64,000 nt of DNA from Candidatus Bipolaricaulota bacterium (GCA_028278555.1 JANQEA010000035.1:152089-216088), one strand, 5' to 3'. Numbered from the stretch's first letter, positions 1,112 through 29,911 are shown. Numbers and translations are program-made. The notes: generated from the letters alone by a model not told the origin.

Positions 1112-2101
1112 ATGAAGGCGTTCGTCACAGGCGGAACCGGGTTCCTGGGAGCCAACGTCGTCCGCGATCTGCTCGAACGGAACATCGGCGTCCGCGCCCT
1201 CTGCCGGCCGACGCCGTCGCGCGGAAACCTCGAGGGCCTCGACGTCGAGATCGTCGAGGGGGATCTTCGTGATGTGCAGTCGCTCCGCCGCGGGATGGCC
1301 GGCTGCGAGCTCGTCTTCCACGTCGGCGCCCTCTACTCGTTCTGGGTCCGACCTCCCGGTCTGATCTACGAGGTCAACGTCGATGGAACGCGGAACGTCT
1401 TCGACGCCGCCCTCGAAGAGGGGATCGCGCGGGTCGTCTACACGAGCTCGGTCGCGGCACTCGGCCTCCGCGACAATGGACATCCGGCCGACGAGACGAC
1501 CGCGACGTCACTCGCCGAGGTCGTCGGCGACTACAAGAAGACGAAGTACCTCGCCGAGCAGATCGCGCTCGAGTACAGCGCGAAGCTCCCGATCGTCATC
1601 GTCAATCCGAGCTTCCCGGTCGGACCGTGGGACGCGAAGCCGACTCCGACCGGCCAGACGATCGTCGACTTCCTCAACCGGAAGATGCCCGCCTACCTCG
1701 ATACCGGGATGAACGTCGTCGACGCCCAGGACGTCGCTCTCGGCCACTGGCTGGCCCTCGAGAAGGGGACGGTCGGCGAACGGTACATCCTCGGTGGCGA
1801 AAACGTGACGATGAAGGGGCTGTTGGATCTGCTCGCCGAGATCACCGGGTTGCCATCACCTAGAATCAGGCTCCCGTACACGCCGATCCTCGCGATGTCC
1901 TACCTAAACGCCGGGTTCTGCAAGCTCTTTCCTCGGATCACCCCGCGGATGACGCCGGAGACGATCCGGATGTCGAGCCACTACATGTACTTCGATCCGA
2001 CCAAGGCCGTCCGAGAGCTCGGTTTCCCGCAGACCCCTGCCAAGGACGCCCTCGCCAAGGCCGTCGACTGGTATGGGGAGAATGGGTACGTGAAGAACTG
2101 A
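1112..2101 (+). CDS. NAD-dependent epimerase/dehydratase (SDR-extended family, HpnA/dihydroflavonol-reductase-like)
   Basis: MKAFVTGGTGFLG Rossmann N-terminus with a YxxxK region, 329 aa. The true start is at 1112 (RBS GGAGG at 1100-1104). The track ORF 752..2101 is an in-frame upstream extension overlapping the previous gene. Confidence 0.9.
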   Translation: MKAFVTGGTGFLGANVVRDLLERNIGVRALCRPTPSRGNLEGLDVEIVEGDLRDVQSLRRGMAGCELVFHVGALYSFWVRPPGLIYEVNVDGTRNVFDAALEEGIARVVYTSSVAALGLRDNGHPADETTATSLAEVVGDYKKTKYLAEQIALEYSAKLPIVIVNPSFPVGPWDAKPTPTGQTIVDFLNRKMPAYLDTGMNVVDAQDVALGHWLALEKGTVGERYILGGENVTMKGLLDLLAEITGLPSPRIRLPYTPILAMSYLNAGFCKLFPRITPRMTPETIRMSSHYMYFDPTKAVRELGFPQTPAKDALAKAVDWYGENGYVKN

Positions 2102-2250
2102 GAGGCGGAAGTATTCGACGCGTGGCAGCTGTGAAACATCGACTTTCCACTCTCAGCGCTACGCTCACTCGACTCGCAGCGCCTGGAACACCGTCAGATC
2201 AACACTGTCTCTTCGAGCAGCGGCTTCTTGACTCTGATCGAAAGGATCAA

Positions 2251-3579
2251 CTACGGCAGCTTCTTGAGAATGGCCTTGATCTTCGAATCCAGCTTGTTCT
2301 TGAGAGTAGTGATGTTCGGGTAGAACACCACCGCGAAGTCCTTGATGTCGAAATGGAGCATCGTTCCTTCTCTTGCAGTAAAGATGACTCTCTTGTTGAC
2401 GCCGTGAGTGTATCCGATTTCGTAATAGACATTGGGTCTTTCGTGCGTGAGATCCGCAATGACGAATTGCGCTGAATCTATCGATTCCATGATCTTGTCA
2501 GTTATCTTCTCCGTATCCTCAACATCATCGACCCTGTAGGCCTTCAGATCGTTCTCTTCACATACCTCCTTGATCGCAGCGTGAACATCGTCCAGGCCTG
2601 GATCTTCCTTTGTCATGGCCATGATGATGAACACCTCTCTCGATAGCTGCGGTATCCCCGCACCGGTTTCTGCAGATGCCACAACTCCACCTCCCAATTC
2701 CCGATACAGATTAGCCAGCTTCTCCTGCTCAGCTGCAAGTTGGTGAGGTGTCTTCTTGCTTGAGTGCAAATCCTCGACCAGACTTGCAAGCCGAGCATAG
2801 CTCTGAAGCCATGCCTCTGCGATGAACCCAATCCAACGATTGTGATCCTCCACTTCGTCTACAGCGAGCAGTTCCTCGTAGTACTCAGCTCTGTTTCCCA
2901 GAAAGAAGCGATCGGTACCAATGAGCGTATGGTCGAGTCTGTATCCACCAATGAGCATAGCATAATTCGCTAGTAGACGCGCAACACGCCCGTTTCCATC
3001 TAGAAACGGGTGGATTCGGGCAATCCCGTAGTGCACAACAGCTGAGACTACCACCGGGTTAGCATCGGGATTGGATTTCACCCAGTGCAGCATAGCCTGG
3101 AGAGCAAGCGAAACTGTCTCTGGCTTCGGCGGAGTGTAGAGGATCTTGCGGTCCGGCATTCTGATAACGTAATTCTGTACTTCACGCAGCTTTCCTCCGC
3201 CGCTTCCGGGAGTGAGGCGTCGGTGGGCCTCCTGGATGAGCGGAAGACTGATGGGCGCGTCTTCTGCCGCACAATCCATTAGGTATTCGATCGCCTCTGC
3301 GTAAGCTTGAATCTCGTGTCCAGATACACCAGCATCGGGCGTGCGGATACCCCGGGGGATGCCCAGAGGGGTGTCTATCCCTGTAGCCGATAGGAACTCA
3401 CCAGATTGAAGAATGCTGATAATCTCGTCCCGGTTCTTGGAAATCGACAGTACTGTTTGAACGTAGGTGTAGTGACGCGTGATTCCCTGTAGCTTTGAGA
3501 CTAGATCAGGAGTGTAGCTGAACTCGATGCTGAAACTGTCAGTCATCTTGGACTCTGCGTTTCTCTCAACGACAGACAT
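2251..3579 (-). CDS. Fic/Doc-family protein fused to a C-terminal DNPH1 / nucleoside 2-deoxyribosyltransferase-like domain
   Basis: 442 aa. Canonical Fic motif HPFLDGNGRVARLL at aa 190-203. The C-terminal ~110 aa (…QFVIADLTHERPNVYYEIGYTHGVNKRVIF…) aligns with the catalytic core of Rcl/DNPH1 and NDT enzymes (ADVVVAEVTQPSLGVGYELGRAVAFNKRIL). The gene is visibly AT-richer than its neighbours. Confidence 0.85.
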   Translation of the reverse strand: MSVVERNAESKMTDSFSIEFSYTPDLVSKLQGITRHYTYVQTVLSISKNRDEIISILQSGEFLSATGIDTPLGIPRGIRTPDAGVSGHEIQAYAEAIEYLMDCAAEDAPISLPLIQEAHRRLTPGSGGGKLREVQNYVIRMPDRKILYTPPKPETVSLALQAMLHWVKSNPDANPVVVSAVVHYGIARIHPFLDGNGRVARLLANYAMLIGGYRLDHTLIGTDRFFLGNRAEYYEELLAVDEVEDHNRWIGFIAEAWLQSYARLASLVEDLHSSKKTPHQLAAEQEKLANLYRELGGGVVASAETGAGIPQLSREVFIIMAMTKEDPGLDDVHAAIKEVCEENDLKAYRVDDVEDTEKITDKIMESIDSAQFVIADLTHERPNVYYEIGYTHGVNKRVIFTAREGTMLHFDIKDFAVVFYPNITTLKNKLDSKIKAILKKLP

Positions 3580-10407: not shown

Positions 10408-11400
10408 ATGGACCGGTACGAACAGATCCCGGAATCGGAGAAGCGCGATCGCTACGAGCGGCTCGCGCGGAAGGCCCTCGCCGCGTACGGGCTGCCCGAC
10501 GTGCGGCTGACCCCGATCGGCACGTCGACGCTTGACGTCTTCGAGGTATCGACGGGCGATCCTTCGAGGCACTACGCACTTCGGATCTGTCCGCCGGAGG
10601 TATCGACCGACCGACTCCAGCGTGAGATCCTCTGGCTGACGGCCCTCCGTCGCGACACGAACCTGTCGGTCCCCGAGCCGATTCTCAGCCTGGACGGTGA
10701 GCTGATCCGGAAGGTGGCTGTCGCGGGGGTTCATGGCTTCCGTCCGTGCATCCTCTTCCGCTGGGTCGAGGGCGAAACCTCCGGCGAGCTGACGCCGGAG
10801 CAGCTCCACGCCGTCGGTCGACTGATGGGACAGCTCCACGCACATGCCGAGACGTTCCGCTGGCCGGAGGAGATCACGCCGCCGCGGCGGAACGCGACGA
10901 TGATGTCCGAGGTTCTCGACGAGGATCTGGTCGCGGCGCACTACGGGCCCGTTCGTCTCGACGTCTTCCGAAAGGCGATCGAGTCGATCGCAACAACGAT
11001 GGGCCGTCTTCGGGACGGGTCGGGCGTCGCCGGCGTGATCCACGGCCGGCTGAACCCACGCCGTCTTCTCTTCGCTGAGGAGGGCGTGGGTGCCGTCGGG
11101 TTTGCGGCCTGCCGATGGGGGTACTACGCCTACGATCTCGCGACGATCCGAAGCCACGTTGCAGGACGGGAGATCGGCGCCGCGCTCGTCGCCGAACTCC
11201 TCAAAGGGTATCGATCGGTCCGCGAACTCCCGCCGGAGGTCGAGCGAGCGATTCCCGCATTCGAGGCGCTTCACTCGATCGACCGAATCCAGAAGGCGCT
11301 ACGACGGCCCGATCGAACAAGTGCGAGCGATCGGAACCTCAAGGGAGAATTCGAGGCGCTCCATCGCGGATGGACGTCCGCGGACCACTTGGAGAGATGA
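10408..11400 (+). CDS. Phosphotransferase-family protein (APH / homoserine-kinase-II-like kinase fold)
   Basis: The in-frame ATG at 10408 gives MDRYEQ…AAYGLPDVRLTPIGTSTLDVFEV…, with an HGRLNPRRLLF (Brenner-like) motif and a D…IDRIQ segment. The upstream part of track ORF 10111..11400 overlaps the patatin gene and was rejected. Confidence 0.8.
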   Translation: MDRYEQIPESEKRDRYERLARKALAAYGLPDVRLTPIGTSTLDVFEVSTGDPSRHYALRICPPEVSTDRLQREILWLTALRRDTNLSVPEPILSLDGELIRKVAVAGVHGFRPCILFRWVEGETSGELTPEQLHAVGRLMGQLHAHAETFRWPEEITPPRRNATMMSEVLDEDLVAAHYGPVRLDVFRKAIESIATTMGRLRDGSGVAGVIHGRLNPRRLLFAEEGVGAVGFAACRWGYYAYDLATIRSHVAGREIGAALVAELLKGYRSVRELPPEVERAIPAFEALHSIDRIQKALRRPDRTSASDRNLKGEFEALHRGWTSADHLER

Positions 11401-11451
11401 GGGGGTTGGGTGTGCCGCCCGAAGGCGACACACCCGGGTAGGTGGGTTGAG

Positions 11452-12267
11452 CTAGAAACCCCAAACGGTCGGATCGAACGTCGTCAGGCTGTCCGGCGAG
11501 AAGACCTCATCGGCGATCTCGGCGTCGGGCCGTCGACGCTCGATCAAGGTGATCAGCGTCGAGCTTTCGTCGAGCACATCGGTGCTCAGCATTTCCGCAA
11601 ACGTCAGCATCCCCTCGAACTCGGTCAGGGAGATGACTTCGATCGTCGACGAGAGGTTCCCGAGGTCGTTGTACGACTCGGCCTTCAGCATCAGGAACGC
11701 TTCGGTATCGACCCAGATGATCGAGCGGGGCGTATCGGTGTCGACGCCCTCCTTCGCGACCGATTCGATCACGTAGGCCATCCGCGTCTCCTCGCCGATC
11801 ACCAGCTCCTCCTCACGAAGGATCGTCGCCACGAAGTCGTCCCGGTCGTTCTCGCCACCGAGATCGTCGTACGACATCGAGCTCCCGGCAAAGCTGCCGC
11901 CGCGCTCCTCGTCCGAAACGAGTTCCTTCGGGATGCCGAGGAGCGGAAGGTAGAGCCAGAGGCGCGAGTCGTCGCCGTCATCGATCTCATGGGTCAGGAA
12001 GATCGTCCCGGCCACGTCGGTTGGCTCGATGAAGTAGATGAGCGAGAAGCCGGGCTTCGACAGCATCCCGAACAGGTTGCCTGAAGTCGTCCCGTCGCGG
12101 TACGTGTTGTCGAACCGAAGCGTCCCGATCATGCTCCCTTCGGCCAGCTTGTCGGCTTCCTCTTCCATCCGGTCGAGGATCTCGTCGGCGGTCAACGCCG
12201 CCGCCGCGAATCCCGCCAGAAGCACCATCACTGCCGTGATCGTCCAAACCATCGTCTTCTTGTACAT
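11452..12267 (-). CDS. LolA-like / outer-membrane lipoprotein-sorting-like periplasmic protein (MMPL partner)
   Basis: 271 aa with a signal peptide (MVWTITAVMVLLAGFAAAALTA). The family commonly sits beside MMPL/RND exporters. It lies 46 nt downstream of the MMPL gene on the same strand. Confidence 0.7.
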   Translation of the reverse strand: MYKKTMVWTITAVMVLLAGFAAAALTADEILDRMEEEADKLAEGSMIGTLRFDNTYRDGTTSGNLFGMLSKPGFSLIYFIEPTDVAGTIFLTHEIDDGDDSRLWLYLPLLGIPKELVSDEERGGSFAGSSMSYDDLGGENDRDDFVATILREEELVIGEETRMAYVIESVAKEGVDTDTPRSIIWVDTEAFLMLKAESYNDLGNLSSTIEVISLTEFEGMLTFAEMLSTDVLDESSTLITLIERRRPDAEIADEVFSPDSLTTFDPTVWGF

Positions 12268-12313
12268 GTCGTTCCTCCCTAGGTGATCTACCTGAATTCG
12301 TTGATCTCGTTTG

Positions 12314-14620
12314 CTATCGATCGCGCTTCCACGCTGCTCGCGACAGGAACTTCGGTTGCCACTGCACGAGGATCGCCGGGATGATCGAGATCGCCGACAG
12401 GGCGCTCACGCCCATCGTCAGTGCAATCTGCCAGCCGAACGTTCGGATTCCCTTGAACGAGGCGAAGATCAGGATGAAGAACCCGAGCGCAACCGTAAGG
12501 GCGTTGTAGGTAATGCCGCGTCCCGTCGTCTGGATCGTCGCCTGGAGCGATCGCTCGGCATTCCGGTCCTTTCGGTACTCCGCACGGAAGCGGGAGATGA
12601 AGTGGATCGAGTAGTCAACCCCGATGCCGATCGCGACGACCGAGACCATCAGCGTCATGATGTCGAGCGGCTGGCCGGTGTAGGCCATGATCCCCATCGA
12701 GAACGTCACCGTCAGGATCAGCGGAATCGCCGCAATCAGGCCGGCGACGACCGATCCCATCAAGATCATGACGAGCACGGCGACGGCAGAGATCGTCGTT
12801 GCCAGACCGATCAGCTGGCTGTTCTGCATCTGGGTGAACATCCGGTTCATCAGCGTCGTTCCGCCGATCATCCGGACTCTCATGGTTCCATCTGCAGGGA
12901 AGTGCTCGTCGAGGTAGCCTTGCACGAGCTTCGCGAGGCGGGAGACGTTGCCGGATGAGCCCATCTGATACATCCCGGTCACCGTCCCGGCGGAGAAGTC
13001 GCCGACGGCCATGTCGCCGAGTGTCCCACCCTGGAACGTGTACAGAAGCAAGAGCTGCGAGATCATCTCCCGACTCTCGGGGATGACATAGTAGGCCGGA
13101 TCGTCGGCGTTGAACTTCTCGTTCATCTGCCGGACGAGCGTCGTCAACGAGAAGGTCTTTGCGACACCGTTGTCGAGGAGGAACGCCTCCAGATCGAGCA
13201 TCGCGTTCAGCACCACCGGATCCTTCAATCCGTCCCGGCGCCCCGTATCGAACTCGACCATCAGACTCATATCACCGGAGAAGTACTCCGACGTGAAGTC
13301 GAGGATCTGAACCGCCTCGTGCTCCTCGCCGAGGAATTCCTCGTTCGACGTCTCAATTCGCAGACGCGGGATCCCGGCGACCATCACGCCGAAGATGATC
13401 AACGCCACGAGAAGGACCGTCTTCCGGTGTCCGACGATGACCTTTTCGAACGCAATGAGGACGCGCGTCAGTGGCCGGAACCCCTTCTTGCTCAGATCTC
13501 GAACTCTCGGCTTCTTCAGCAGCGAGAAGACGGCCGGAATCATCACGAGCGAGAAGAGCATCGCAGCCAAGACGCCGATTGCCGTGACGATGCCGAAATG
13601 GCGCTGAGGTACGAGGAACGCCGAAAGAAGTGACAGGAAACCGACGGCGGTCGTCAGCGAGGTCATGACCACCGGCGCCTTCATCTCCTGCATCGTGTTG
13701 AAGATCGCTTCGCGCTTCTCGATCCCCTTGGCGATCTCCTCGTTATAGCGGTTCAGGACGTGGATCGCATCGGCAATACCGATCGCCAGGAGGAGGATCG
13801 GCGCGATGAACGACATCGTCGTCATCGGGAAGCCGAGAAGGACCATTGCCCCCATCGCAACGATCACCGACAACAGCACGATCGCAATCGGCAGGAGAAT
13901 CCCGCGGATCGTCACGAACGATGCGAACAGGAGCGCGACCATCACGAGGATCGCCAGCGGAAAGAGGAGCGTCGTGTCGGCTTCCATCTCCTCCGCCATG
14001 ACCGTGTCGAAGTACGCGTCGCCGTAGATGTACAGGGTGTCACCGTCGCCGCGGTTCTCGTCGACGATGGCGACGATGTCCGGCGTGATGCCGTACTCGT
14101 CGGCCCCGACCTCGAGTTCGATGTTGATCAGCGCAGCCTGCCCGGACTCGCTGACAACGCCACCGATCAGGTTCTCATCGGCCATCAGCCGCTCGCGGAA
14201 GATCTCCATGTCTTCCGGTGTCCGCGGCGCGACGCCGTCTGGCGCGGCCTTGCGGACAGAAAGCGCCGTCTCGGTTCCGACAATCGTCTGGGAGTTCAGC
14301 GGCGTGCTGACCGCCTTGACCCCCGGAATCGCCTCGATCCCGTCGGTCATCCGCTCGATCTTTCCGAGCGTCGTCTCGTTGAAGATGCCGCCCTCGTTGA
14401 ACAGCATCACCATGATCCCCCACGACCGGCCGTACCGCTCCTCCGCCTCGTCCATCAGGACGATGATCGGATCGTCATCGGCCATGAACTCGCGGAAGTC
14501 GGTCTCCTGCTCCAGAAACTGGATCGGGTACGCAAGAGCCACGGCTAGCAACAGCGTCGCGGCGATCGTCCAGATTGGATGATCGACCGCAAATCGAATC
14601 AATCGGTTCATCGGATCCAT
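12314..14620 (-). CDS. MMPL-family RND-superfamily transporter (HpnN-like lipid exporter type)
   Basis: About 770 aa with 12 predicted TM helices and two periplasmic loops. The ATG at 14611 forms an ATGA overlap with the stop of the upstream gene. The ATG at 14620 and the track start at 14659 are alternatives. Confidence 0.9.
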   Translation of the reverse strand: MDPMNRLIRFAVDHPIWTIAATLLLAVALAYPIQFLEQETDFREFMADDDPIIVLMDEAEERYGRSWGIMVMLFNEGGIFNETTLGKIERMTDGIEAIPGVKAVSTPLNSQTIVGTETALSVRKAAPDGVAPRTPEDMEIFRERLMADENLIGGVVSESGQAALINIELEVGADEYGITPDIVAIVDENRGDGDTLYIYGDAYFDTVMAEEMEADTTLLFPLAILVMVALLFASFVTIRGILLPIAIVLLSVIVAMGAMVLLGFPMTTMSFIAPILLLAIGIADAIHVLNRYNEEIAKGIEKREAIFNTMQEMKAPVVMTSLTTAVGFLSLLSAFLVPQRHFGIVTAIGVLAAMLFSLVMIPAVFSLLKKPRVRDLSKKGFRPLTRVLIAFEKVIVGHRKTVLLVALIIFGVMVAGIPRLRIETSNEEFLGEEHEAVQILDFTSEYFSGDMSLMVEFDTGRRDGLKDPVVLNAMLDLEAFLLDNGVAKTFSLTTLVRQMNEKFNADDPAYYVIPESREMISQLLLLYTFQGGTLGDMAVGDFSAGTVTGMYQMGSSGNVSRLAKLVQGYLDEHFPADGTMRVRMIGGTTLMNRMFTQMQNSQLIGLATTISAVAVLVMILMGSVVAGLIAAIPLILTVTFSMGIMAYTGQPLDIMTLMVSVVAIGIGVDYSIHFISRFRAEYRKDRNAERSLQATIQTTGRGITYNALTVALGFFILIFASFKGIRTFGWQIALTMGVSALSAISIIPAILVQWQPKFLSRAAWKRDR

Positions 14621-21692: not shown

Positions 21693-22352
21693 ATGAACCA
21701 ACTGAGTCTTCGAAACATCGAGCGCAAGAGCTGGCAAAGCACGATGGGCGGCGGGGTGATCGAGATCATGTTCGGGATCATGATGTTCGCCGGCGCGACG
21801 TCGTATCTCGTCTCCGATCTCGGCGCGCCATCCGCTGCGAGCACCGCTACGTTGATCGCCCTTCACGCCGTGGCGCTTCTATTGATGCTTTGGCTGCGGA
21901 AGCGATACGTCCTTCCGCGGGTCGGGCGGGCCGCCTTCTCGGCGAACCGAAAGCGGCGTCTCCATCGCATGCGGATCCTTCTGGGGATTTGCGTCGCGGT
22001 GACGGTCGCGCTCGTCGTGCTGACGGTCCTCGCAACGCGGACCGGGACCTCTCTCCTCGGGCCCGTTTCGGCCGCTCCCGTGGTTGCCGTCGTTGCCGTG
22101 ATCGTTCTCGTGCCGCTCGGCGCGCTCGCGATCTTCCTCGACTACCCTCGATTCCTCCTTCTTGGCGGATTGGTCGTCGGGGCGGAGGCGATCCTCGCGC
22201 TGCTCGACAAGTACGGTTCGCCGCCGTTCGACCGGACACTCGTCTTCGGCTCGATCGGCCTGATCAGTCTGATCCTCGGGTTGGTCATCTTCGCTCGCTT
22301 CCTCCGCCGCGTACCACGACCCGAACACGAGGTGATCGATCATGCCGGCTAG
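21693..22352 (+). CDS. Polytopic membrane protein, paralog A (unknown function)
   Basis: 219 aa with about 5-6 TM helices. It shares a motif (LPRVGRAAFSANRKRRL versus VPRIGHATFRGRRKRSL) and topology with the next gene. Confidence 0.6.
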   Translation: MNQLSLRNIERKSWQSTMGGGVIEIMFGIMMFAGATSYLVSDLGAPSAASTATLIALHAVALLLMLWLRKRYVLPRVGRAAFSANRKRRLHRMRILLGICVAVTVALVVLTVLATRTGTSLLGPVSAAPVVAVVAVIVLVPLGALAIFLDYPRFLLLGGLVVGAEAILALLDKYGSPPFDRTLVFGSIGLISLILGLVIFARFLRRVPRPEHEVIDHAG

Positions 22353-22971
22353 TCCGGGATTGAGGGAACTCGAGCGGCGCGTCTGGCTGCGGACATTCGA
22401 ACACGGGCTCTGGGACGTCGCCATCGGCCTGCTGTTACTGGCGTTCGGGATCGGCATCCTGACGGAGTTCTACTGGCTCTCCGCCATCATCGTTCCGGTC
22501 AGCCTGCCTGCGATGCGAGACCTTGCCCGACGGGCGATTGTCCCGAGGATCGGGCACGCGACGTTCCGCGGGCGGCGAAAGAGGAGCCTTGTTCACGTTC
22601 AGCTGATCCTGACCGGCCTCGCCGTCGCCGGTGCCGGGATGTTCGCGTTCACGAGCTTCGCGTCACGGGGGACGGCGCCCGACTGGATGCTCTGGATACG
22701 GTCTCACTTCATCGTCGTCATCGGGCTGATCTGGGGCGGGGCACTCGGCGTCGCCGGGTGGACCGTCGATTTTCCCCGTCTCTACGCGTACGGCGCGATC
22801 CTCTTCGGAGCTCTGCTCGCCGTCGACCTCATCCCATCCGGCTACCACCTTGCCCACGCGCTGATCGCCGTCGGCGGACTGATCGCGCTCGTCGGGGCCG
22901 CGCTGTTCATCCGCTTCACCCGTCGGTATCCGCGTCACCCCAAACCGCTCGAAGGAGCGGCCGATGACTGA
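22342..22971 (+). CDS. Polytopic membrane protein, paralog B (unknown function)
   Basis: 209 aa. It overlaps the upstream gene by 11 nt and the downstream regulator gene by 8 nt. Confidence 0.6.
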   Translation: MPASPGLRELERRVWLRTFEHGLWDVAIGLLLLAFGIGILTEFYWLSAIIVPVSLPAMRDLARRAIVPRIGHATFRGRRKRSLVHVQLILTGLAVAGAGMFAFTSFASRGTAPDWMLWIRSHFIVVIGLIWGGALGVAGWTVDFPRLYAYGAILFGALLAVDLIPSGYHLAHALIAVGGLIALVGAALFIRFTRRYPRHPKPLEGAADD

Positions 22972-23316: not shown

Positions 23317-23400
23317 ATGGAAGGAACCACGTGGATCCTGATCGGCCTCGGCGTTCTCGCCGTGATCGGCGCGATTATCCTCCTGTCACAGGCGAAGTAG
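23317..23400 (+). CDS. Candidate 27-aa single-pass membrane peptide (MEGTTWILIGLGVLAVIGAIILLSQAK)
   Basis: A GGAGGAGG SD lies 6 nt upstream of the ATG, and third codon positions are G/C-rich. It is too short for the ORF track. Track ORF 23301..23537 is an alternative reading in another frame with an R-rich composition typical of wrong-frame high-GC sequence. Confidence 0.3.
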   Translation: MEGTTWILIGLGVLAVIGAIILLSQAK

Positions 23401-23729
23401 AACATCTGGTCCGCCCGGTCGTTCTTCTTACGGCCGGGCATCTGTTTCCTCGACCGGATCGGCAATCCGAGATCGACGGCCAGGCTTCCGGACAGAAGGA
23501 CGGCGTCGATCACCCGGCTGAAGCTACCGGAACGTAAGCTTCACGGAACCGAGGTCGACTCGGACTCTCCAGCCTGTAGCCCCTATCGTGATGTACACAA
23601 CGACGTTCATGTCCCTCCTTGCACATCCAAGCGGTTCTCAGGACTGGCTCGTGAAGGTCGCATGCCGATTGCAGTGTAAGACCCAACCCTAATTCCGCGT
23701 AGCTCGTCTGTTCACATGAATGCTCAGAT

Positions 23730-23759
23730 TTGACATTCACAGAACTTCCATGATATACG
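23730..23759 (+). promoter_or_regulatory. Candidate promoter for the glycine-rich protein gene
   Basis: TTGACA (23730-23735), an 18-nt spacer, then TATACG, within a ~390-nt AT-rich intergenic region. Confidence 0.35.
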
Positions 23760-23791
23760 GTCCCTGATTTCGACTATGGGAGATGGTTCAA

Positions 23792-25789
23792 ATGTCGAAA
23801 CTCGGGAAACGCATCTGCGTTGTGTGCGCGATCATCCTTGTGGCAGCTGTTGCTATGACCTGCGTTGCGCAGGAGTACGGAAAGGATAACCCACAAGCGT
23901 GGGGCGGATACCCTGAGGGATACAAGTTTGGTGCTGATGGAACCCAGCCGGATCATCCTGACGGATACGACGGCTGGCCAGCAGACCATCCCAACAATCC
24001 CAACAAGGGCTACGCCGGCAAAGGCGGCAAGGGCGCGGACGCGACTAAAGAAGGCCACGCAGCTGGGAATGGAGGGAAGGGTGGTGCTGGACCAAAGAAT
24101 GATGATGGCCCCCTTAATTCCTGGAACGGCGGCAAAGGCGGAGCCGGCGGAGGCAGCTCAGTTCCGGGAATACGCGGTGGAAATGGCGGCAAAGGCGGCG
24201 ATTCCACACACGGAGCCGGAGGCGATGGCGGCAATGGCGGCGATGGCGGCGAGGACGATGTGACGGTGAAGCACTCCGCCGGCGGTAACGGCGGCAAAGG
24301 CGGAGACAGCGTCAACGGTAACGGCGGCAAGGGCGGAGACGCTGGGAAGGGTAGCGACAGTGCGCCCGGCGGAAACGGCGGCGACGGAGGCACCAGCATT
24401 CATAAGACAGGAGGAGCGGGGGGTGACGGCGGCGACGGCGGCAGCAATGGCGAGGGTGGCAACGGAGGAAGTGGCGGTCACACGAGACATGGGACGGGCG
24501 GACCGGGCGGCAATGGCGGAAACGGCGGCGCGAGCAAGATTCCAGGACAGAAGGGAAAGACGGGAGGTGAGGGCGGCGATGGCGGCAATGGGTATGTCGG
24601 CGGTCCCTGCGACAAGGTAGGTAACGGGGCCGGAGGCAAGGGCGGACAAGGCGGGCAAGGCGGCGCGGGTTACTCTGGCGACGATGAGAACGACGCAACG
24701 GGCGGCGGGGATGGTGGGAAAGGCGGGGCCGGAGGAAATGCCGGAGACGGGGAAGATGCATCCGCGGGCAATGGCGGGGATGGTGGGAAAGGCGGCACAG
24801 CGAACAAGAAACCTGCAATTGGGGGCACTGGCGGGAAGGGTGGCAAGGGCGGCCGCTCTGGGCTCGGCAACAAAGGCGGCACTGGCGGAAAGGGTGGACC
24901 AGGAGGAGATGGACCAGACAAGCATGGCGGAGAAGGCGGGGCTCCTGGTGAAGGCGGAGACTATTCCCCATCTGGCCCCATGAAGCCTGGCAAAGGAGGC
25001 ATGGGTGGCAGCGGCGGAAAGGGAAGCCCCGAAAAAAAGGATCGAAGTCGTGAGAGAGGTGCCTCCGGCTCTTGTGTGAGATACGTCTGCCTTCCCTTCT
25101 CAGGTTTCGGATGGGAACGGGCTTGGACCTCGGACACTGATCGGGCCGAGTGTGTTGGCTTGGGCCTTTGCTGCGTCGGCCTAGATGTGGGCGTCGAAGT
25201 CGTGACAGTCGACCATGCCGGAATGCTGTCCGACATCATAGATCTCACACCACTGCTAGGCTGGTGGAGCAGCGAGTCGTACTCCCCGATGATCGGCGTG
25301 GCCATCACTGCGCTTCTCCCGGAATGCGGAACCGGGCTACCTCTTGTCGACATAGCCTATGGCTCGGCCAGCATCCCTGTGAGTGGTCACGCCGAGTGGA
25401 TCCTCGAAGATTCCGATTATGGACTCGCGGAGATCCAGGGCATCCTTGGCATAACCCGTGCGTCCTTGGGATTCGGGATGCGCATCGGTGCACTCTGCGA
25501 ATGCCCTGTGCTGACACCGTACGTCGACCTCAAAGCGGGAATCGCACAGTCGTGGTTAGAGTTCGAGGATGTCCAATCCGGGATGGATTCGGTAGATCTG
25601 CGGACACTGCTAGAAACTAACACAAGTGCTATCACACAGTACTACGTGCAAGCTTCCATGGGAGCCTCGTTCTCACTCGGTCCACAGCTTGACCTTCGTC
25701 TTGTCGGGACTGGAAGGATCTCGGGGGGAGCGGATCAATCAACCCATTTCGAGTTCGGGGGAAGTCTGTCACTGGGGCTCCGCTTCTAG
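23792..25789 (+). CDS. Secreted glycine-rich repeat protein (PGRS-like GGxGGxGG modules) with a C-terminal beta-barrel-like domain ending in Phe
   Basis: Start moved to the ATG at 23792 (MSKLGKR…), which has GGGAGA 8 nt upstream. Signal peptide RICVVCAIILVAAVAMTCVAQE. About 300 aa of GGNGGKGGD / GGDGGNGG modules. A Cys-rich linker precedes a ~200-aa C-terminus of amphipathic beta-strands ending …FGGSLSLGLRF. Confidence 0.75.
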   Translation: MSKLGKRICVVCAIILVAAVAMTCVAQEYGKDNPQAWGGYPEGYKFGADGTQPDHPDGYDGWPADHPNNPNKGYAGKGGKGADATKEGHAAGNGGKGGAGPKNDDGPLNSWNGGKGGAGGGSSVPGIRGGNGGKGGDSTHGAGGDGGNGGDGGEDDVTVKHSAGGNGGKGGDSVNGNGGKGGDAGKGSDSAPGGNGGDGGTSIHKTGGAGGDGGDGGSNGEGGNGGSGGHTRHGTGGPGGNGGNGGASKIPGQKGKTGGEGGDGGNGYVGGPCDKVGNGAGGKGGQGGQGGAGYSGDDENDATGGGDGGKGGAGGNAGDGEDASAGNGGDGGKGGTANKKPAIGGTGGKGGKGGRSGLGNKGGTGGKGGPGGDGPDKHGGEGGAPGEGGDYSPSGPMKPGKGGMGGSGGKGSPEKKDRSRERGASGSCVRYVCLPFSGFGWERAWTSDTDRAECVGLGLCCVGLDVGVEVVTVDHAGMLSDIIDLTPLLGWWSSESYSPMIGVAITALLPECGTGLPLVDIAYGSASIPVSGHAEWILEDSDYGLAEIQGILGITRASLGFGMRIGALCECPVLTPYVDLKAGIAQSWLEFEDVQSGMDSVDLRTLLETNTSAITQYYVQASMGASFSLGPQLDLRLVGTGRISGGADQSTHFEFGGSLSLGLRF

Positions 25790-25976
25790 AGTCTTGAGTT
25801 GGGAGGGTCTCAGAGGTACAGGCACAAGTTCCCGGAAGCCAAGCCTGTGGCTACTGGTGAAGGTGGCCCAGGGCCGATGACGCAATACGCCGGAGGTTCA
25901 GTCATTGCATTCATGATGGGCCACTTGTCTTGGCGGCTGGACTCCCGCCGCCAGAATTCGCGCAACGTGAACTGCG

Positions 25977-26924
25977 CTACTTGTACCGAATTCTCGGATT
26001 GACGGCGGCGTAGAGGATGTCGGCGAGCAGGTTGGCGAAGACAACGCCGATGACGACGACGATCGCGATCGCCTGGAGGAGCGGGAAGTCGCGCCGGTCG
26101 ATCGCGAAGAGGAGCAGCCGGCCGAGCCCCGGGTAGTTGAAGACGTTCTCGATGACGATGATCCCGCCGATCAGCCAGCCGAAGCTGATCGCGATCACCG
26201 TGATCGTCGGGAGGAGGGCGTTCCGCAGAACGTGCTTGAAGACGACGATCCACCTCGGGAGCCCTTTCAAGACGGCCGTCCGCACGTATGGCCGACGCAT
26301 CTGCTCAGCAACCTCGGCGCGGGTCAGCCGCGCGATGTACGCGAGGAGGACGAACGTCGCCGTCAGCGACGGGAGGATGAGGAACGGAAGCGCCTCCCAG
26401 AAGCCGGTCCCCGGCGCGATCGGCGAGCTCGCCGGGAGGAGATCGAGCCGGTGCGCGAGAAGCTCGATCAGCAGGACGCCGGTGACGAACTCGGGGAGAC
26501 CGACAACCGCCAGGCTTCCGAGGCTGATCACGTGATCGGCGATCCCGTGCTCCCGGAGTCCGGCCCAGACGCCGAGGACGACGGAGAGCGGCACGGCGAG
26601 GACGAGGGCGACGACTGCAAGCATCAGCGAATTGCGGAGCCGTTCGACGACAAGCGGTCGAACCGGAAGATCGGTCCCGAATGACGTCCCCCAGTCGCCG
26701 CGGACGAACCGTCCAAGCCACGACCCGTACTGCACGATCGCCGGTCGATTGAGGCCGAGCTCTTCGCGGAGCGCGGCGACCGCTTCCTCGCCGGCTTCGC
26801 GCCCGAGGATCACCCGCGCGACGTCCCCGGGAAGGAACTGTGTCGCCGCGAAGATCAACGCCGACGTCAACAGAAGCGTCAGCAGAAGGAAGCCGAGCCG
26901 CTGGATCAGAAGGCGTCCCATCAT
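25977..26924 (-). CDS. ABC transporter permease (DppB/OppB type)
   Basis: 315 aa with 6 TM helices and the binding-protein-dependent transport signature region. Confidence 0.9.
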   Translation of the reverse strand: MMGRLLIQRLGFLLLTLLLTSALIFAATQFLPGDVARVILGREAGEEAVAALREELGLNRPAIVQYGSWLGRFVRGDWGTSFGTDLPVRPLVVERLRNSLMLAVVALVLAVPLSVVLGVWAGLREHGIADHVISLGSLAVVGLPEFVTGVLLIELLAHRLDLLPASSPIAPGTGFWEALPFLILPSLTATFVLLAYIARLTRAEVAEQMRRPYVRTAVLKGLPRWIVVFKHVLRNALLPTITVIAISFGWLIGGIIVIENVFNYPGLGRLLLFAIDRRDFPLLQAIAIVVVIGVVFANLLADILYAAVNPRIRYK

Positions 26925-29911
26925 GCATCTCCTTCGAAGAGCGGCTTCTGCATCCCCCGGAGCTCCGCGACCGGGATATGGCAGAAGATCGCGTGCCCCG
27001 ATTCATCCTGCTGCCACGGGGGAATCTCCTCGACGCAGATCGGCCCGATCCTTCGCGGACATCGCGTGTGGAATGGGCAGCCGCTCGGCCGATCGATCGG
27101 ACTTGGGATTTCGCCTTCGAGGCGAACTGCTTCCCGACCAGTCCCGCCTCCGATCGTCGGGACCGCTGACAAGAGCGCCTCCGTGTACGGGTGGTACGGC
27201 GGCGCGAAGATCTCCTCAACGCTTCCGATCTCCATCAGCCTTCCCAGATAGAGAACAGCGATGTCGTCGGAGAGATGCGAGACAACGGCCAGATCGTGGG
27301 TGATGAACAGATGTGCGCTGTCCCCGCCCGACTGGAGCTCGTCGAGAAGGTTGAGGATCCGCGCCTGGACCGAGACATCGAGCGACGAGGTCGCTTCGTC
27401 GAACAGAACGAGATCCGGACCGGCGGCAATCGCACGGGCGATCGCGACGCGCTGTTTCTCGCCGCCGGAAAGCTGATCGGGCAGCCGTGACGCGTAGGCC
27501 GCCGAGAGGCCGACGCGATCGAGAAGATCGTTCATCCGCAGGCGGACCTCGCGTCGGCCGACCTCGCCCAATCGGATCAGCGGGCGGACGAGCGTCGCTC
27601 CGACCGACAGATGCGGGTTAAGCGCCTGATCCGGATTCTGAGAGACCGACTGCAGGCGCCGGAGGGTTCCGCGCTTTCGCCCCCGGAGACCCGGGGGAAG
27701 AAGTTCATCGTCGAGGTGGATCGCGCCGGCATGGCGCGGTTCCAAGCCGAGGATCGTTCGGGCGAGCGTCGTCTTCCCGGATCCGCTCTCGCCAACCAGC
27801 CCGAGCGTCCCCCCCTCGTCGATCGACAGACTGACCCGATCGACCGCCCGGACGGCACGGCGCTCCCGGCGGCGGACTACGTCAATCAAGGAGCGGGAAA
27901 TCGGGAAGCTCGCCTCAACGCCCTCCACGCGGAGGACGGTCTTCTGGCGTTTCGTTCGGCGCTCTGGCGCCTCGCCGACGAAATCGGACTCCCAGTCCGC
28001 CTGAGAGATTTCCGCCCAACGATGACAGCGGACCGTGCGTCCGCCGTCGATCGACTCGAGGAGTGGTCGCTCCTCGCAGACCCCCGCCGCCCACGGGCAT
28101 CGCGGGCGGAAGACGCAGCCGATCGGAATCGCGTCGAGCGCCGGGATCGATCCCTCCATCGACGACAGTCGCGCGCCCCGAGCCTCTGCGCGGGGGAGGC
28201 TCGCCAGCAGTCCGGCCGTGTACGGATGGCGCGCGTTCCTCAGGAGCGCATCCGTCGGACCGGCTTCGACAAGCTCCCCGGCGTACAGAACGGCAACGTC
28301 GGTCGCGACACGCGCAATCACCCCGAGATCGTGTGTGATGTAGAGGGTTGACCGGTCTCCCTCCTGAAGAAGGTCGGCGATCAGGTCGAGGATCGTTGCC
28401 TCCGTCGTCACGTCGAGCCCGGTCGTCGGCTCGTCGAAGAGAAGAAGGCGCGGCGATGTCGACAGGCCCATCGCGATCGCCACCCGCTGCTGCATCCCGC
28501 CGGAGAGCTGGTGCGGATACCGGCGGGCAACGCGCTCCGGATCGGCGATCTGCACGCTCCGAAGAAGCTCGGTCGCCGCGCCCCGGGCCTCCTTCCGGAG
28601 CAGCGACCCATGTTGTCGAAGAATCTCAGCGATCTGTTCGCCGACCCGGATCGATGGATTGAGCGAGGCGAGCGGATCCTGCGGAACCAGACCGATCTCG
28701 GCGCCCCGGATGGCGCGCAGCTCGCGGGAAGAGAGCCCGAGCAGATCCTTCCCGTCGAAGCGAATCCCTCCGGCGCGGACCGCCCCGTTCGCCGCCAGGT
28801 ACTGCGCGAAGGCGAGGGCCAACGTCGACTTCCCCGACCCGCTCTCGCCGACCACGCCGAGCGTCTCGCCTAGGCGGAGTTCGAGATCGACGTCGCGGAC
28901 CGCGTCGAGCCATCGACCCTCTTGGAAGTACGAGACGGTCAACTGCTCGATCGACGCAATGGCCTCTCCGTTCTCGGCTGGTAATTCTGAGCCTCTCCCG
29001 GCGGACGTCCGCGCACGGAGGATCCTCCGTCGGGCTCGGGGAGAGAGCGATTCGGTCGTCGGACGAAGGGCTGTCTTCAGTCCGTCGGCGGTCAGATTGA
29101 CGCCGACGACCAGCAGCGAGATCGCTCCGGCCGGGAAGTAGAGCGACCACGGCGCAAGCCGGATGTAAATCCGCGCCTCCTTGACCATCAGGCCCCAATC
29201 CGGGCTCGGCGGCTGGACGCCAACCCCGAGAAAGCCGAGGGATGCTATGAGGAAAATCCCGTACGAGAACCGAAGGGCCGCTTCGACTGACAATGCTGGG
29301 AGGACGGACGGGAGGATCTCGCGAAGGAGGATCCACGGGAGTCGCTCGCCCCGGAGGCGGGCGGCCTCGATGAATCCGAGTGACTTGATCGCCAGGGTCT
29401 CGCTCCGGACGACGCGCGCGACGATCGGCGTGTAAACGACGGCGATCACCGCGAGAACGCTCGCCTGTGACGGACCGACCGTCCCGAGGAGGACGAGCGC
29501 AAGGAGGAGGGCCGGGATCGCGAGGAGGCTGTCAAAGACGCGCATCAACAGCTCGTCGAACAGCCCGCCGACGTATCCTGCGAGGAGCCCGAAGAGCGTC
29601 CCGGCCGTTACCGCAAGGAGGGCACCGAGCCCGGTCAGCGAGAGGATGCTCCGCGCCCCGTAAACGATCCGGCTGAAGACGTCCCGCCCGAGGTGATCGG
29701 TCCCGAACCAGTGCGCCGTCGACGGTGCCTGCCGCGCGTCGGCGTAGATCTGCTCTGTCGGTCCGTACGGCGCGATCCACGGCGCGAGGATCGCAAGAAG
29801 GACGAACAGGCAGACGATGCTCGCCCCGAACGCCGACGACGGTTTCCGATACAGGTCACGCAACACCCTGATCACCGGCCACCGCCCGCGCTTCATCTCA
29901 GAACAGTCCAT
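26921..29911 (-). CDS. Fused ABC transporter: DppC-type permease plus two tandem ATP-binding cassettes (DppD-like and DppF-like)
   Basis: 996 aa. An N-terminal 6-TM permease is followed by two Walker A / LSGG(M/E)QQRV / Walker B units, each with an oligopeptide-type Cys-rich C-terminal extension. There is an ATGA overlap with the dppB-like gene. Confidence 0.9.
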   Translation of the reverse strand: MDCSEMKRGRWPVIRVLRDLYRKPSSAFGASIVCLFVLLAILAPWIAPYGPTEQIYADARQAPSTAHWFGTDHLGRDVFSRIVYGARSILSLTGLGALLAVTAGTLFGLLAGYVGGLFDELLMRVFDSLLAIPALLLALVLLGTVGPSQASVLAVIAVVYTPIVARVVRSETLAIKSLGFIEAARLRGERLPWILLREILPSVLPALSVEAALRFSYGIFLIASLGFLGVGVQPPSPDWGLMVKEARIYIRLAPWSLYFPAGAISLLVVGVNLTADGLKTALRPTTESLSPRARRRILRARTSAGRGSELPAENGEAIASIEQLTVSYFQEGRWLDAVRDVDLELRLGETLGVVGESGSGKSTLALAFAQYLAANGAVRAGGIRFDGKDLLGLSSRELRAIRGAEIGLVPQDPLASLNPSIRVGEQIAEILRQHGSLLRKEARGAATELLRSVQIADPERVARRYPHQLSGGMQQRVAIAMGLSTSPRLLLFDEPTTGLDVTTEATILDLIADLLQEGDRSTLYITHDLGVIARVATDVAVLYAGELVEAGPTDALLRNARHPYTAGLLASLPRAEARGARLSSMEGSIPALDAIPIGCVFRPRCPWAAGVCEERPLLESIDGGRTVRCHRWAEISQADWESDFVGEAPERRTKRQKTVLRVEGVEASFPISRSLIDVVRRRERRAVRAVDRVSLSIDEGGTLGLVGESGSGKTTLARTILGLEPRHAGAIHLDDELLPPGLRGRKRGTLRRLQSVSQNPDQALNPHLSVGATLVRPLIRLGEVGRREVRLRMNDLLDRVGLSAAYASRLPDQLSGGEKQRVAIARAIAAGPDLVLFDEATSSLDVSVQARILNLLDELQSGGDSAHLFITHDLAVVSHLSDDIAVLYLGRLMEIGSVEEIFAPPYHPYTEALLSAVPTIGGGTGREAVRLEGEIPSPIDRPSGCPFHTRCPRRIGPICVEEIPPWQQDESGHAIFCHIPVAELRGMQKPLFEGDA

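Follow-up and report, generated by a model that had tools for sequence, protein, structure and literature searches.

The window analysed here is a 64,000-nucleotide (nt) stretch of DNA from a Candidatus Bipolaricaulota bacterium (GCA_028278555.1, JANQEA010000035.1:152089-216088), and all positions are counted from its first letter. Between 23,401 and 25,976 it carries the gene for a glycine-rich repeat protein, which is the subject of this work. The protein has four parts: a signal peptide, a head motif, a region of glycine repeats, and a linker leading into a C-terminal barrel. Its open reading frame (ORF) represents a genuine gene that is confined to this lineage of Bipolaricaulota-like bacterium. 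The parts are of known kinds, and their combination is new or unusual; the barrel is very rare, and one of the domains appears to belong to a family not described before.

The gene and its reading frame

In the list of ORFs, a single uninterrupted frame of 668 amino acids (aa) occupies 23783-25789 on the + strand, and residues are numbered here from its ATG at 23783. The Shine-Dalgarno sequence GGGAG (23778-23782) directly abuts this codon (0 nt) and stands 9 nt before a second ATG at 23792. Because GGGAG is well spaced there, ATG 23792 is the better start and, judging from this spacing, most likely the one used. The coding sequence would then run from 23792 to 25789 (+) and specify 665 aa plus the stop codon. 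Both ends of the protein have non-repetitive homologues that read in the same frame. The called frame is therefore correct, and the 665-aa protein proposed in a first-pass annotation, made by a model from this DNA alone, stands. No family match was obtained for the whole protein in Pfam (E ≤ 1) or NCBIfam, and an exact-sequence look-up in the gene index showed that it is not on record there.

The codon usage of the gene is foreign relative to its neighbours, with a G+C content (GC) at third codon positions (GC3) of 0.61 vs 0.72-0.87 in eight neighbouring genes. The glycine codons also leave their mark on the other frames. Four overlapping ORFs lie on the - strand within 24010-24971 (24010-24399, 24158-24925, 24312-24971 and 24670-24921; 129, 255, 219 and 83 aa), and we agree with the earlier view that they are phantoms. 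Their products are rich in Pro, Ala and Arg because the complement of GGN codons yields such strings, and the composition marks these ORFs as by-products of GGN-rich codons. Three further ORFs in the other frames of the sense strand (23865-24263, 24360-24620 and 24684-24983; 132, 86 and 99 aa; Ala/Arg/Met-rich) are held open by the GGN-rich repeat and are as prone to mis-calling as the antisense four. None of these antisense and alternative sense-frame ORFs within the repeat should be annotated.

Signal peptide, glycine domain and barrel

As the first-pass annotation had recognized, the N-terminus (23783-23869, +; aa 1-29) looks like a Sec-type signal peptide. It reads as a K/R-bearing n-region (MSKLGKR), an h-region (ICVVCAIILVAAVAM) with a 15-residue hydrophobic core, and a c-region TCVA followed by QE. 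Kyte-Doolittle hydropathy peaks at 2.9 over aa 11-29, and the candidate cleavage sites lie between AVA and M or between CVA and Q.

The mature protein carries a conserved Tyr/Pro/Asp/His head motif, WGGYPEGYKFGADGTQPDHPDGYDGWPADHPNNPNKGYAGKGGKG (23900-24034, +; aa 40-84). A search with aa 31-448 returned four relatives (P0003-P0006), which share a non-repetitive head of the form GYPxGYxFGxDGxxxHPDGYDG[YW]PxDHPNNPxxGxxGKGG that passes directly into GGxGGxGG runs; the corresponding alignment (A2) has 49 invariant columns. Back-translated head patterns led to eight further metagenome loci (L020-L027) on contigs with a GC of 0.33-0.70. The head motif is 51-71% identical to those of the four relatives and the eight loci, and the head-plus-repeat domain is thus known in about 12 metagenomic proteins, with 7 to 18 glycine runs per family member and with differing partner domains. 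One partner, in P0005, is a pre-toxin HINT domain (PT-HINT, E 4.8e-14). Another, in P0006, is a dockerin-like duplicated Ca-loop that falls below the Pfam cut-off (E 3.7e-3; 17.9 vs 22.9 bits). The remaining partners are unannotated domains placed before or after the glycine module. Head and glycine module together thus appear to be a small, unannotated and mobile domain family. The gene neighbourhoods of seven family loci (L016-L019, L021, L025 and L026) were short or heterogeneous and gave no functional clues. The glycine domain was also sought in viral contigs, BFVD, phages and plasmids; nothing was found in these collections, and a phage gp38-type origin is therefore without support.

Two of the family members illustrate how different the base composition of their hosts can be. 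They lie at 5974-7395 in L021 (GC 0.33) and at 1443-2831 in L026 (GC 0.70), and both have unannotated C-terminal domains. P0004, P0006 and the L026 protein share a further conserved region past the glycine domain (...LHP[DE]...V.[VF]V[IV]E[YF]...), which may be a second undescribed domain.

The glycine-repeat domain itself (24071-25018, +; aa 97-412) consists of 18 (GGx)nGG runs of 5-11 aa, joined by variable, polar loops of 4-18 aa in which D, S, K, N, P and H are abundant. The modules quoted in the first-pass annotation all occur in it (GGNGGKGGD at aa 132 and 167, GGDGGNGG at aa 146 and GGAGGDGGD at aa 210). Glycine makes up 45% of residues 81-420, which hold 15 strict GGxGGxGG matches. Against shuffled sequences, Gly-Gly autocorrelation peaks only at lag 3 (z = 8.2) and lag 6 (z = 4.7). 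Since it fades past lag 6, the triplet register is kept up for about three turns and no longer. At the DNA level, Tandem Repeats Finder reported only short arrays with a 9-nt period (2-6.7 copies, scores 31-57), and dispersed repeats were 20-43 nt long with 65-92% identity, apart from one exact 23-nt pair. The DNA repeats are short and degenerate, with no regular tandem array and no sign of recent unit expansion. The proposal that the gene evolves by repeat expansion thus finds no support in the DNA, and there is no close homologue with which repeat numbers could be compared.

The glycine domain and the barrel were modelled separately with AlphaFold; a full-length alignment was dropped, MAFFT having spread barrel fragments across the glycine region. 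From an alignment of five sequences, the glycine domain was predicted with essentially no helix or strand according to DSSP (predicted template modelling score, pTM, 0.54). Its predicted local distance difference test (pLDDT) score is 70-80 at roughly domain residues 30-240 (about 210 residues, to about aa 270). A Foldseek search of PDB with this model gave one significant match, 7JJV (chain B, E 4.8e-4, probability 0.93, 27% identity; chain A, E 1.2e-3), which is the nine-helix polyproline-II (PPII) bundle antifreeze protein of the springtail Granisotoma. The next matches, not significant, were the snow-flea antifreeze entries 2PNE and 3BOG. Sequence searches of PDB with two profiles and with the repeat region returned nothing. 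Glycine runs of 8-11 residues amount to about three turns of polyglycine-II (PGII) helix, and this, the helix- and strand-free model and the PPII matches together lead us to read the domain as a PGII assembly. With moderate confidence, the model points to PGII helices gathered in a bundle or sandwich, whose cap is the head motif and whose edges carry the polar loops.

A charged, Cys-rich linker (25019-25177, +; aa 413-465) follows, as had been noted earlier; its five Cys are at aa 431, 436, 457, 463 and 464. The part of it in the N-terminal model (aa 413-430) has pLDDT <50, the part in the barrel model (aa 457-465) is of low confidence (<50 over model residues 1-6), and aa 431-456 lie outside both models. 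No helix is predicted before strand 1 in the barrel model, in which the linker is only partly represented.

The last ~205 aa (25178-25786, +; aa 466-668) are predicted to form an outer-membrane-type 8-stranded beta-barrel with an OmpA/OmpX/NspA-like fold. The AlphaFold model, built on an alignment of three sequences, has eight long strands (pLDDT 77, pTM 0.69), and the strand faces alternate in hydrophobicity in a dyad pattern. The protein ends in GGSLSLGLRF, with an aromatic last residue. All 25 PDB matches found by Foldseek at E ≤ 1e-3 are outer-membrane barrels. The best were NspA (2.6e-6), the OmpA transmembrane domain, Ail, OmpX and OmpW (E 2.6e-6 to 1e-3, probability 1.0, template modelling (TM) score by target 0.6-0.7). 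Matches to the ten-stranded OmpT/Pla/OpcA and to the autotransporters EstA and EspP were weaker. The first-pass annotation was thus right to see a strand-rich C-terminus of outer-membrane type ending in ...LSLGLRF. Its comparison with an autotransporter translocator did not hold, EstA and EspP matching 2-4 orders of magnitude worse than the small barrels. Long connections between strands (478-491, the extended beta3/beta4 hairpin, and 595-614) alternate with short ones of 4-7 residues. Such alternation of loops and turns is usual for outer-membrane proteins, and both ends of the barrel are therefore placed on the periplasmic side.

Relatives of the barrel are few. A phmmer search with aa 419-668 against 1.84 billion representative proteins found two, P0001 (E 7.7e-14) and P0002 (E 1.7e-6), both of about 376 aa, in which an unrelated, non-glycine N-terminal half precedes the same C-terminal domain. 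They end in ...IGIEF and ...LGCGF, respectively, so that the terminal Phe and the hydrophobic residues at -3, -5 and -7 are kept in both. Word-indexed protein searches with the C-terminal domain alone and with the 3-sequence profile returned nothing. Peptide patterns from the domain identified no relative in 185,579 species genomes, and the three-barrel profile had no match among PDB sequences at E ≤ 10.

The genomic slot and its neighbours

The gene is the occupant of a lineage-specific 2.5-kb segment (23445-25975), delimited by blastn and by alignments against the related loci L002, L012 and L001. The gene is preceded on the + strand by two membrane-protein genes, the gene of a winged-helix (HTH_34) regulator and a membrane mini-ORF of 27 codons with a hairpin behind it; a convergent ATP-binding cassette (ABC) operon of the Dpp/Opp type lies downstream. 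Both flanks are collinear with L002 and L012. Homology ends at about 23445, just past the hairpin, and restarts at the stop codon of the dppB-like permease at 25977. In the relatives the interval between these breakpoints is 1.2-1.8 kb long and unrelated in sequence, and the gene in it is another one, read from the opposite strand. The deviating GC3 and the break in synteny mark the slot as variable and the gene in it as specific to the lineage and foreign in composition. No paralogue of the protein was present in the window or in the relatives' loci that were compared.

In the relatives the slot gene (11182-11991, +, in L002; about 11870-12634, +, in L012) encodes a secreted, strand-rich protein of 250-270 aa. 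This protein has a signal peptide, a possible lipobox (LAISC), an acidic Pro/Glu tail and zero Pfam matches. It was ruled out as a homologue of the barrel by an hhalign probability of 0.1 against the barrel profile. The slot seems to gather envelope or secreted proteins.

Between the mini-ORF and the gene lies a non-coding spacer (23402-23791, +), and the earlier description of a non-coding stretch of ~390 nt upstream of the gene is accurate. The spacer up to 23782 (381 nt) has a GC of 0.556, falling to 0.513 in its lowest 300-nt window. It is the second-lowest G+C region of the window and not, as had been claimed, the most AT-rich, since 2100-3500 drops to 0.47. TTGACA (23730-23735) and TATACG (23754-23759), separated by an 18-nt gap and located upstream of GGGAG, form a pair that we read by eye as weakly promoter-like. 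The spacers had no match in an Rfam search and show no unusual folding (z = 0.06 for the upstream spacer and -0.52 for the other).

Several neighbouring features deserve mention in their own right. The mini-ORF (23318-23401, +; 27 codons) encodes MEGTTWILIGLGVLAVIGAIILLSQAK and has a strong GGAGGTGA ribosome-binding site. Its product is kept in L002 and L012, with substitutions that preserve its hydrophobic character, and a conserved GC-rich hairpin (23413-23439) stands 3' of it. It is probably a real small membrane protein that ends the HTH_34 operon. The two genes before the regulator (21693-22352 and 22342-22971, +) are adjacent and overlapping and encode multi-pass membrane proteins of ~210 aa without Pfam matches. 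They look paralogous, being similar in length and in an N-terminal motif (...R.W...E.G.WD/ ...). On the other side, in a single 996-aa ORF (26921-29911, -), a permease domain of the OppC/DppC type is continuous with two ABC ATPase domains that bear oligo_HPY tails. Such a DppC-DppD-DppF fusion in one chain is unusual for this transporter class, and it is kept in L001, L002 and L012. Farther away, a 442-aa protein with a Fic/DOC domain (E 1.4e-19) is encoded at 2251-3579 (-), at the true G+C minimum of the window (0.47, within 2100-3500). Its C-terminus has a weak match to nucleoside 2-deoxyribosyltransferase/TIR-like domains, and with a GC3 of 0.585 its gene is a second compositionally foreign one.

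The flanking genes place the window among Bipolaricaulota-like metagenome-assembled genomes (MAGs), as judged by sequence identity: the permease beside the gene is 91-93% identical to those of three MAGs labelled 'uncultured Thermotogae' and 67-71% identical to those of Candidatus Bipolaricaulota/Acetothermia MAGs. Bipolaricaulota branch deeply; a first isolate of the phylum was not reported until 2025, and the outer-membrane proteins of the group are almost unstudied. Published work describes them as Gram-negative diderms whose outer membrane is toga-like; they are reported to have Omp-alpha/Omp-beta homologues and a BamA-type gene and to lack lipopolysaccharide (LPS) genes. An outer-membrane barrel is plausible in this host because the phylum is reported to have an outer membrane and a BamA-type gene; the outer membrane and its assembly machinery are here taken from this phylum-level literature.

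Envelope placement and comparison with known systems

We consider it probable that the gene encodes a Sec-exported envelope protein, in which a small barrel would be the anchor in the outer membrane and the glycine domain a PGII bundle, and that it was acquired into a variable slot. Following Sec export and cleavage of the signal peptide, the C-terminal ~205 residues would be inserted into the toga-like outer membrane as an 8-stranded barrel of the OmpA/OmpX type. Insertion would depend on the barrel-assembly machinery (BAM), for which the terminal aromatic motif (...SLGLRF) would be the signal. With the barrel as anchor, the functional part would be the ~385-residue N-terminal domain: the conserved Tyr/Pro/Asp/His cap and then ~18 GGx segments, packed as left-handed PGII helices into a flat, rigid bundle or sandwich. 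The packing is proposed by analogy with springtail antifreeze proteins, with gp38 of phage S16 and with models put forward for PGRS domains. The variable polar loops at the edges of the bundle would then be the likely binding surface, and the module a rigid platform, as in gp38 and as proposed for PGRS. The mobile glycine module, found elsewhere with pre-toxin HINT or dockerin-like modules, would here have been joined to a membrane barrel, and the gene would have been acquired or swapped into the slot between two conserved operons. As a strain-variable barrel with a large appended domain, the protein may serve as an envelope spacer, an adhesin or a phage receptor.

The side of the membrane on which the glycine domain lies is suggested by analogy. 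Canonical topology places the N-terminal domain of such a barrel in the periplasm, and 8-stranded barrels have no pore, so that the glycine domain would face the periplasm. The surface exposure suggested in the first-pass annotation is at odds with this topology. In favour of surface exposure are the variable slot in which the gene lies and the partner domains of extracellular type found elsewhere in the glycine-domain family.

Several observations weigh against the envelope protein with a folded glycine domain that we propose. Both AlphaFold models rest on very shallow alignments (three sequences for the barrel and five for the glycine domain). The mean pLDDT of the glycine domain is 59, with values <50 over its last 100-150 residues, and its match to 7JJV has a TM-score of 0.14 by query and 0.37 by target with a root-mean-square deviation of 16 A. 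It is because of these low pLDDT values, low TM-scores and the large deviation that the PGII fold is given moderate confidence only. Searches of Pfam, NCBIfam and PDB linked the sequence to neither a curated family nor a solved structure. A consensus promoter scan of the spacer returned nothing. Finally, the 8-stranded barrel has no pore for a passenger, and we know of no route by which the domain could be displayed at the surface.

It is reasonable to ask whether the protein is an autotransporter-like surface adhesin, whose barrel would export and display the glycine-rich passenger as an adhesin or variable antigen. Signal peptide, passenger and C-terminal barrel succeed one another as in type V secretion, the slot is variable and compositionally foreign, as is often the case for surface proteins, and family relatives carry extracellular-type modules (PT-HINT in P0005 and the sub-threshold dockerin in P0006). 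EstA, EspP and AaaA are also among the weak fold matches. Yet the model has 8 strands, not 12, and its best matches are the pore-less OmpA/OmpX/NspA/Ail (E 1e-6 to 1e-4, TM-score 0.6-0.7), whereas autotransporters match at E 1e-3 to 1e-2 with TM-scores of 0.29-0.33. The Pfam Autotransporter family gave no match, no helical linker is predicted beside strand 1 in the modelled part of the linker, and the loop pattern implies a barrel whose N-terminus faces the periplasm. We therefore regard such an adhesin as unlikely. A bolder proposal, which we hold to be quite improbable, would keep surface display by other means: the head and GGxGGxGG module would represent an undescribed and widely scattered family of extracellular PGII-bundle binding domains, displayed here by an 8-stranded barrel. 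Barrel and module would then form a minimal display system resembling an autotransporter, working in an LPS-free toga membrane through a route outside the known type V classes.

The glycine region could alternatively be an intrinsically disordered, flexible spacer, which would make the product a small outer-membrane protein trailing a long and floppy tail in the periplasm. Low complexity, the high glycine content of residues 81-420 and the polar loops would all fit, and so would the absence of regular secondary structure by DSSP, pLDDT <50 in the C-terminal 40% of the domain, mean pLDDT <50 in four of the five models, and the poor TM-scores of the fold matches. A disordered spacer would not need a strict GGx register in runs of 8-11 residues, which fits three PGII turns, and the non-repetitive head motif is kept across organisms whose GC ranges from 0.33 to 0.70. 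The pLDDT of 70-80 across about 210 residues was reached from just five sequences, and the top fold matches are specifically PPII-bundle proteins. Disorder of this kind thus seems to us doubtful, and rather more so than display as a conventional adhesin. Very improbable, in turn, is that there is no functional gene at all, the frame being either a decaying remnant of horizontally acquired DNA or open only through its GGN-rich composition. Foreign codon usage, the lack of an exact copy in the gene index, the near absence of homologues, the missing consensus promoter and the several frames kept open by GGN-rich DNA could be read in that way. Against it, the 2-kb frame is intact through 250 codons of the N- and C-terminal parts, where glycine is not abundant, both of these parts have homologues at the protein level, a well-spaced Shine-Dalgarno sequence precedes the start codon, and the C-terminal domain folds confidently in the model.

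Returning to the envelope protein proposed here, its barrel most resembles the small barrels of OmpA (transmembrane domain), OmpX, Ail, NspA and OmpW. It is like them in predicted fold, size and strand number, in long extracellular hairpins and short periplasmic turns, and in its C-terminal aromatic residue. It differs in having no sequence similarity to their Pfam families (OmpA_membrane, OMP_b-brl, Ail_Lom and OmpW) or PDB chains. OmpA has its own barrel first, whereas here the barrel is C-terminal, behind a 430-residue N-terminal region. The host also differs, being a toga-type, LPS-less diderm, and the barrel has only the two relatives mentioned above among the representative proteins searched. 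A soluble N-terminal domain followed by a C-terminal barrel, in diderms of the Terrabacteria type, is an arrangement shared with OmpM/Omp-alpha, BamA, LptD and Tpr/MOSP. The N-terminal domain is periplasmic in OmpM and Omp-alpha/beta, and likewise in BamA, LptD and Tpr/MOSP. Unlike OmpM/BamA-type proteins, the protein has no SLH, POTRA or other known periplasmic domain in Pfam, and its barrel is much smaller.

The likeness to Type Va autotransporters lies in domain order: signal peptide, repetitive passenger-like domain and C-terminal barrel. Membership of the classical Type Va class was rejected on strand number (8 not 12) and the unmatched PF03797. The passenger also differs in not being a beta-helix, and no helix through the pore is predicted in the modelled part of the linker. 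Gly-rich Ca-binding repeats, also suggested in the first-pass annotation, can be set aside: a regular-expression search for the RTX nonapeptide (GGxGxDxUx) found one match in 668 aa and the HemolysinCabind family was unmatched. A collagen-like triple helix was rejected as well, the longest G-nonG-nonG run being 2 triplets.

Mycobacterial PE_PGRS proteins have a GGxGGx repeat domain with a proposed PGII sandwich, are associated with an outer lipid layer and sometimes carry a C-terminal module (PMC9436101). The protein studied here shares with them a long domain of GGx triplet repeats, in composition and register only, and its loops are polar and charged in contrast to their Phe/Trp-rich edges. 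The term 'PGRS-like' used in the first-pass annotation is thus apt as a structural analogy (GGx triplets and predicted PGII packing). It does not extend to family membership, which was rejected: the N-terminal PE domain that directs ESX-5 export is absent (PF00934; Pfam E ≤ 1), the signal is of the Sec and not the ESX type, the anchor is a barrel, the lineage is not mycobacterial, and the gene is a single copy and not part of a multigene family.

The closest structural parallels to the glycine domain would be the PPII/PGII bundles (7JJV/2PNE, gp38 in 6F45, the Obg N-domain and the ALK glycine-rich domain), in which GGx runs of about three turns are joined by loops. This segment length of about three turns has been described for polyglycine-II bundles and for PGII-sandwich models of PGRS (PMC9436101; bioRxiv 10.1101/2023.11.25.568672). 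In gp38 of phage S16, variable loops alternate with conserved glycine segments (bioRxiv 10.1101/2023.11.25.568672), as they do here; gp38 was absent among the Foldseek matches of the glycine domain. Antifreeze proteins are its top three PDB matches, with 25-28% identity and only 7JJV significant, and an ice-binding role is not expected. The known bundles have 6-14 segments vs about 18 here, the Tyr/Pro/Asp/His head motif has not been described for them, and no match to them appears at the sequence level. Folded glycine-rich PPII bundles are known from few proteins, namely springtail antifreeze proteins, gp38, Obg, ALK and acetophenone carboxylase, in addition to the models of PGRS. If our reading is true, a bacterial family with a conserved cap and interchangeable partners would widen this class of bundles and supply soluble constructs with which to test the fold.

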